319 nt of DNA, taken from NCBI RefSeq assembly GCF_003334305.1, contig NZ_QOWS01000085.1, one strand, 5' to 3'. Shown here one piece after another: positions 1 through 319 of this stretch. The stretch's first letter is position 1. Every line of letters starts with the position of its first letter. The DNA comes from Escherichia coli (GTDB taxonomy: Bacteria; Pseudomonadota; Gammaproteobacteria; Enterobacterales; Enterobacteriaceae). The translations under genes and the position numbers were made by a program. Under the pieces are notes generated by a model. The model ran no database searches. It had not been told where the DNA came from and saw only the letters and a program-made list of their open reading frames with translations.

Positions 1-319
1 TTCTTCCGGAAGCGGGCTGCTTTTCCCCGATTCAAAAAGCGGGGACAGAATGATGCATTCCGCTACCCGCAGGGCGTTAAGCTCGATCAGGAAAACAGCC
101 GTATTTTTCTGCCGAAACTGGGCTGGATGCGCTACCGGAACAGCCGTCAGGTCACGGGTGTTGTGAAAAATGTCACTGTCAGCCAGTCCTGCGGTAAGTG
201 GTACATCAGTATTCAGACAGAAAGTGAAGTATCCACTCCGGCTCACCCTTCAGCATCAATGGTCGGGCTGGATGCTGGCGTGGCTAAACTCGCCACGCTG
301 TCAGATGGCACAGTCTTTG
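1..319 (+). CDS. tnpB: Internal fragment of a TnpB-type protein (IS200/IS605-family OrfB; RNA-guided RuvC-like endonuclease), truncated at both ends by the window
   Basis: Seen in sequence: frame 1 is open across all 106 codons, with no start or stop inside the window; + frame 3 has tga at 50-52 and + frame 2 has tga at 164-166. The translation contains the FPRFKKRG basic motif typical of the TnpB N-terminal half, and MVGLDAGVAKLATLSDG near the 3' end, matching the RuvC-I block (G-[IL]-D-x-G) of TnpB/Cas12-family proteins. From memory, not verifiable here: the peptide closely resembles enterobacterial IS609-like TnpB copies (e.g. E. coli insQ/ydcM). Position within the protein is inferred from the usual RuvC-I location at roughly residue 180-200 of ~400-aa TnpBs, so the window would cover about residues 90-200. 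Confidence 0.9.
1..319 (+). mobile_element. Interior of an IS200/IS605-superfamily (or IS607-type) insertion sequence or solo tnpB locus; element boundaries lie outside the window
   Basis: Inference from the tnpB coding content. tnpB genes occur within IS200/IS605 and IS607 elements and also as stand-alone copies. No element ends, hairpin ends or tnpA are visible, so the element type and its intactness cannot be determined from this window. Confidence 0.55.
259..319 (+). other. RuvC-I catalytic motif region of TnpB (MVGLDAGVAKLATLSDGTVF), with the presumptive catalytic Asp codon gat at 271-273
   Basis: Seen in sequence: codons 87-106 of frame 1. The spacing hydrophobic-G-L-D-x-G followed by a hydrophobic beta-strand-like stretch is the canonical first RuvC motif of TnpB/IscB/Cas12 nucleases (established knowledge). 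Assigning this Asp as catalytic is inference by motif position, not by alignment. Confidence 0.7.

Follow-up and report, generated by a model that had tools for sequence, protein, structure and literature searches.

An internal fragment of insQ, the tnpB gene of IS609 in Escherichia coli, and the conserved RuvC and zinc-finger residues of its product

The window and its gene

The window analysed here, a 319-nt stretch of Escherichia coli DNA, matches E. coli insQ (WP_000826403.1) with 100% identity; insQ is the tnpB gene carried by the insertion sequence IS609. All 106 codons of + strand frame 1 are open across the 319 nt, and the remaining frames hold ORFs of only 38 aa and 22 aa. The features of the window are as follows.

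1..319, + strand: internal fragment of insQ (IS609 tnpB), frame 1, encoding InsQ residues 93-198; the start and stop codons both lie outside the window
208..319, + strand: opening part of a match to Pfam OrfB_IS605 (PF01385; profile i-Evalue 1.7e-34), which covers InsQ 162-277 and extends past the window
265..279, + strand: GLDAG, the RuvC-I motif in the first beta-strand of the RuvC/RNase H fold, aligned to GVDVG and GIDLG
271..273, + strand: GAT, Asp183 of InsQ, the RuvC-I catalytic Asp by phmmer alignment numbering, equivalent to D191 of ISDra2 TnpB

The 106-aa translation of the window by itself matches solved TnpB structures (E 5e-10 to 1e-9), so its likeness to TnpB is not due to chance, and these matches place GLDAG opposite GVDVG of ISDra2 TnpB and GIDLG of 8iaz. 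Translation also confirmed the original prediction, which had placed the Asp of GLDAG at codon 91 (nt 271-273): the codon is GAT, and the motif covers nt 265-279. This Asp lies within MVGLDAGVAKLA (longer contexts, SASMVGLDAGVAKLATLSDG and PSASMVGLDAGVAKLATLSDGTVF) and is D183 of a full-length InsQ of 402 aa, in which residue 162, where the PF01385 match starts, corresponds to window codon 70.

A search with the 319 nt found matches in 4885 of 5426 complete E. coli genomes, with 2553 records at least 99% identical; among the matches listed, all were 100% identical and annotated as 'insQ: RNA-guided endonuclease InsQ/TnpB family protein'. The identical window sequence is present at several loci in many genomes, two of which were extracted as exact matches, one between ydcL and ydcO (L001, from NZ_CP026085.1) and one between ybcM and yedK (L002); at both, insQ occupies positions 3725-4933 and the window positions 4001-4319. 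The allele in the window is ~99.3% identical to K-12 insQ and differs from the W3110 copy by 4 amino acids, so that it represents an allelic variant of the same element that carries InsQ (YdcM) in K-12 and O157:H7. The K-12 IS609 has the same dead tnpA (PMC2891674).

The record that supplied L001 is labelled DH5alpha. IS609 is present at four places in NZ_CP026085.1, whose insQ is ~0.7% removed from genuine K-12 alleles; W3110 and another DH5a assembly, both genuine K-12, have a single IS609 place each, so the label looks doubtful.

IS609 and its copies

The element around insQ belongs to the IS200/IS605 family and is ~1.74 kb long (1743-1748 bp by aligning independent insertions). Its left end (CCGGTG...) lies at L001 3234 and its right end (...GGATGTCAA) at L001 4976, and a 21-nt subterminal hairpin is found at both ends in one orientation (L001 3250-3270 and 4947-4967). 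Each of the four independent left junctions has TTAT, and no two of the six right flanks available from copies with a recognisable right end are the same. Two empty sites establish how the element inserts: K-12, at a place where O157 holds the element, reads ...GGCCTGGT TTAT/CACATCAGT..., and strain 22AR0750 reads ...GCGCTTT TTAT/TATCGGTTT... between ydcL and ydcO, the slash marking the insertion point. At both sites the insertion of IS609 is precise, directly 3' of TTAT and free of target duplication, which is the signature of IS200/IS605 elements. An extended target, TTAT/YA, had appeared from the first three sites and failed once the six right flanks were listed.

To compare insQ across genomic contexts, nine loci were considered, which contain seven distinct intact insQ sequences (from 5 chromosomal sites and 2 plasmids).

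L001 and L004, ydcL-ydcO: insQ intact; tnpA pseudogenes at L001 3216-3717 and L004 2582-3007
L002, ybcM-yedK: insQ intact, with the same sequence as in L001; tnpA pseudogene at 3294-3717
L003, inside a TetR/AcrR gene of O157:H7: insQ intact
L006, yhgE-hslO in an ST131 strain: insQ intact; tnpA pseudogene at 2296-2493
L007, gltX-yfeD in O157:H7: insQ intact; tnpA pseudogene at 2068-2493
L008, the TetR/AcrR site shared with L003: insQ pseudogene, frameshifted by an 11-bp deletion at nt 64-74; tnpA pseudogene at 2068-2493
L009 and L010, two plasmids: insQ intact, at L009 2500-3751 and L010 2485-3693

The two genes of the element differ in their state of preservation. Stops, frameshifts and truncations make tnpA a pseudogene in 6 of the 7 chromosomal copies examined, in 5 of which insQ is intact, and insQ is frameshifted in one of the nine copies overall. 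Among the seven chromosomal copies, only L003 has both genes intact; its TnpA (143 aa, 145.7 bits on transpos_IS200) is encoded divergently from insQ, and the element divides the TetR/AcrR gene in two. The plasmid copies of insQ, which are ~94% identical, retain the full catalytic set; neither plasmid has a recognisable left end or an annotated tnpA beside insQ, and the copy on L010 starts differently (N-terminus MKQQVSFK...) and its right end is diverged.

The insertion next to ydcO is widespread. The junction between the right end and ydcO (L001 4877-5076) was found in 3265 of the 5426 complete E. coli genomes (~60%); in the same search an ST131 record matched the element half only and 22AR0750 the ydcO half only. 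As the other genomes are without this junction, IS609 at ydcO is a common polymorphism and is not fixed.

The 10-mer TTATCCGGTG consists of the TTAT target plus the six bases with which the left end begins. A second exact copy of it lies inside ydcL (L001 2754-2763), ~480 bp upstream of the true left junction, and is possibly a chance match.

Catalytic and zinc-finger residues of InsQ

The full-length protein scores 378.6 bits against the NCBIfam guided_TnpB model (NF040570; cutoff 100) and 305.8 against the narrower IS200_TnpB model (NF038281), which is under that model's cutoff of 425. Pfam assigns it HTH_OrfB_IS605 (PF12323, 3e-13), OrfB_IS605 (PF01385, 1.7e-34) and Cas12f1-like_TNB (PF07282, 7e-23), that is, the TnpB architecture of an N-terminal HTH/WED-REC region, an OrfB_IS605 RuvC core and a zinc-ribbon TNB. 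In a phmmer comparison, InsQ 3-372 aligns to residues 3-370 of the 408 in ISDra2 TnpB (8bf8) with an E of 2.6e-55. By the numbering of this alignment the RuvC triad D183/E267/D363 of InsQ corresponds to D191/E278/D361 of ISDra2 TnpB, and the CXXC...CXXC zinc finger C334/C337/C353/C356 to C331/C334/C351/C354; in ISDra2 TnpB, Nakagawa et al. 2023 (PMC10097598) assign exactly these residues to the catalytic centre of RuvC and to the CCCC zinc finger in the TNB. Because the alignment reaches residue 372 and includes both the zinc finger and D363, InsQ has no C-terminal truncation.

The original prediction had taken the Asp in the window for the RuvC-I catalytic residue, and the alignment of D183 to a residue that is catalytic in ISDra2 TnpB (D191; PMC10097598) bears this out. 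It had also proposed a full-length alignment to ISDra2 TnpB as the way to judge the gene, and in that alignment all three RuvC acidic residues and all four zinc-finger Cys are conserved. With triad and zinc finger both intact, InsQ is predicted from its sequence to be a competent nuclease, as had been suggested from the window.

Among known systems, a close one is ISDra2 of Deinococcus radiodurans, whose TnpB (PDB 8bf8, 8ex9, 8exa, 8h1j; 408 aa, against 402 for InsQ) can be aligned to InsQ end to end and has the identical catalytic D-E-D and CCCC residues, although the two proteins are clearly diverged in sequence. Both elements are IS200/IS605 members with a Y1 TnpA that insert 3' of a short T-rich motif. 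The motif itself differs, since TTAT is deduced for IS609 and TTGAT is given for ISDra2, according to the guide tables in the supplement of PMC12781874. Unlike ISDra2, IS609 has divergent tnpA and tnpB genes, and InsQ carries a 15-residue insertion after RuvC-II (~278-292). More distantly, InsQ shares with Cas12f (type V-F) a core of RuvC and TNB zinc ribbon (PDB matches with E from 1e-13 to 1e-18). No CRISPR array or cas gene is annotated adjoining insQ at any locus examined, and, unlike in Cas12f, the guide of InsQ would derive from the transposon end and not from spacers.

The literature on insQ, ydcM and the IS609 TnpB yielded no cleavage experiment or functional study of InsQ itself. A 2026 study (PMC12781874) purified an IS609-type TnpB, a more distant relative and the only IS609 TnpB found to have been tested, and independently used TTAT as its TAM; that protein is reported to have passed a filter based on ten conserved critical residues and not to have been the most active in trans-cleavage.

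A different reading of the gene is that it encodes a nuclease-dead, domesticated TnpB, used as an RNA-guided transcriptional repressor. Such proteins, the TldRs, have been defined by deterioration of the DED motif with loss of one to three residues (the screen needed at least 2), are often truncated at the C-terminus so that the zinc finger and RuvC-III are gone, have no identifiable transposon ends, and are tied to a specific gene (fliC_P, oppF) with one dedicated guide (Wiegand et al., 10.1101/2023.11.30.569447). InsQ has the ancestral fold in common with TldRs, and the two presumably use RNA guides to recognise DNA in the same way. Loss of tnpA in many copies is weak context in favour of this reading, as is the ydcO-locus copy, whose prevalence could resemble host retention. 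Against it, InsQ displays none of the TldR features: the RuvC acidic residues (3/3) and the zinc finger are intact, the protein is untruncated and the transposon ends are present. The element also occupies many unrelated sites with different flanks, so that the guides would differ as well, and across the at least seven genomic contexts examined insQ has no fixed neighbour of the fliC_P or oppF kind. The probability that InsQ is a TldR-like repressor is therefore close to negligible.

The original prediction had argued, from the RuvC-I residue in the window, that the gene does not encode a nuclease-dead domesticated TnpB. The intact triad, the full length, the transposon ends and the neighbouring tnpA support this conclusion, which holds because the residues downstream of the window are intact too. 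An intact RuvC-I would by itself be weak evidence against a TldR and could not have established the point, since TldRs may lose only one to three of the DED residues (10.1101/2023.11.30.569447).

Taken with its genomic setting, the window very probably belongs to an ordinary transposon-borne RNA-guided nuclease gene, the insQ of IS609, with its D-E-D triad and CCCC zinc finger intact. The useful outcome is a clear negative, namely that insQ does not encode a domesticated repressor of the TldR kind; otherwise the result is mainly a correct annotation, as insQ, IS609 and the TnpB family, including its catalytic residues, structure and mechanism, are already known. The description of the element, with its exact ends, TTAT target and two empty sites, would permit InsQ to be programmed or tested directly.

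Persistence of insQ and a candidate guide RNA

The catalytic residues are maintained across copies of the element. In all seven intact sequences, MVGLDAGVAKLA, MIVIEDLKV and the zinc-finger/NADVNGAR block retain D, E, D and the four Cys, and the motif around D183 (MVGLDAGVAKLA) is invariant in these 7 copies from 7 locations. In a 90% cluster of 8831 members, 15 were read; D183 is present in all 15, and the other residues are kept where covered. Pairwise dN/dS by the Nei-Gojobori method is 0.14-0.36 over the 21 pairs of intact copies, with few substitutions in each comparison (9-77) and with pairs drawn mostly from different sites. These ratios show purifying selection on the element lineage, not necessarily on each resident copy. 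Because the counts are small and the pairs come mostly from different sites, the ratios may be a trace of earlier selection, from a time when the element was still mobile; the pair from one locus (L001 and L004, ydcL-ydcO) differs by 9 substitutions, too few to show selection.

These data bear on the possibility that insQ is a functionally idle relic of intact sequence, in which the reading frame of tnpA-dead copies is still open for lack of time to decay. Several observations are compatible with such a history, including the tnpA pseudogenes in L001, L002, L004, L006, L007 and L008, the inactivity of IS609 in K-12, the 11-bp deletion that frameshifts insQ in L008, and the mere 9 substitutions that separate the same-locus copies L001 and L004. 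[quoted passage not shown] An idle gene would nonetheless be expected to fit poorly with the decay of tnpA beside an open insQ in 5 of the 6 tnpA-dead copies, with dN/dS below 0.4 throughout the 21 pairs, and with the unvarying D183 motif, and we consider the relic hypothesis unlikely.

It is a general and already described feature of this family that tnpB tends to outlast tnpA, and the asymmetric decay of insQ and tnpA fits this tendency. Why insQ outlives tnpA in many copies is therefore a general question about TnpB, not one specific to this locus.

A further proposal would be that InsQ is a nuclease-active TnpB co-opted by the host with its catalysis kept, with a role at particular loci in, for instance, defence or genome maintenance. 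The intact insQ beside a decayed tnpA at several loci, its high prevalence and the purifying selection could all be read in this way. The ydcO insertion is polymorphic and not fixed, however, the guides vary by site and would merely match the local flank, the survival of tnpB beyond tnpA is general for the family, and none of the observations points to a host target; co-option appears very improbable. Hardly more probable is the related idea that host selection has kept tnpA-dead copies, such as the one at ydcL-ydcO, catalytically competent after mobility was lost. If true, it would imply a nuclease-dependent role beyond the spread of a mobile element, such as guarding an occupied site or acting on incoming DNA.

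If InsQ is the ordinary transposon-borne nuclease that we favour, it would bind an omega RNA whose template is the 3' end of insQ plus the right end of the transposon. By family precedent the guide would consist of 16-20 nt of the flanking DNA past the right end, with TTAT as the TAM, and InsQ would cut DNA that bears TTAT followed by a guide-matching sequence. The expected target would be the scar that remains after excision of the element, and cutting of this scar would for that reason favour retention (homing) of the element. As tnpA is dead in many copies and IS609 never transposed in the K-12 lines mentioned above, many copies would have no excision scar to cut.

A candidate region for this RNA, at the insQ 3' end and the right end, was analysed in L001 (4806-4986). 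Its Rfam matches are all sub-threshold, namely HgcC (22.2 bits, gathering 50, E 0.024), sot0042 (17 bits, gathering 88, E 0.16) and RAGATH-18, and the scan gave no match inside the window. Both HgcC and sot0042 have been linked to RNAs that overlap the 3' ends of tnpB genes. The matches offer a positional hint and not evidence. Shuffled sequences fold less well than this region does (z -2.66 for the region). Compensatory changes were found at 0 of 57 predicted pairs among six copies, which are too alike for covariation to be informative, and we infer the omega RNA on that account with reserve.

An exact 12-nt repeat, ATATCGGTTTCT, lies at L001 4976-4987, the right-end junction where the predicted guide for the ydcO locus begins, and a second time in the 5' part of tnpA (3683-3694). 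A guide that targets its own element through this repeat was considered and rejected, as the internal copy has no adjoining TTAT and the repeat is confined to one insertion site; other 11-12-nt chance repeats in the region weaken the idea further, and ATATCGGTTTCT is probably a chance repeat as well.

The right end of the element also contains the annotated stop codons of several neighbouring genes. Its terminal ...GATGTCAA holds TCA, the complement of which, TGA, is the annotated end of the convergent genes ydcO, yedK and yfeD. The host-gene stops in the right end are listed below; all lie outside the window.

L001 4973-4976: stop of ydcO
L002 4973-4976: stop of yedK
L007 3749-3752: stop of yfeD

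On the plasmid L010, where the right end was not located, ddrA ends at an equivalent distance downstream of insQ (L010 3733). At the empty ydcL-ydcO site (L011 397-402) the native ydcO stop, TAA, spans the insertion point, and insertion of the element adds one Tyr codon and brings a new stop. ATAA, the complement of TTAT, includes a stop codon, and the last bases of the element restore one. The simplest explanation of this shared stop arrangement is that the insertions seen are harmless ones that have survived.
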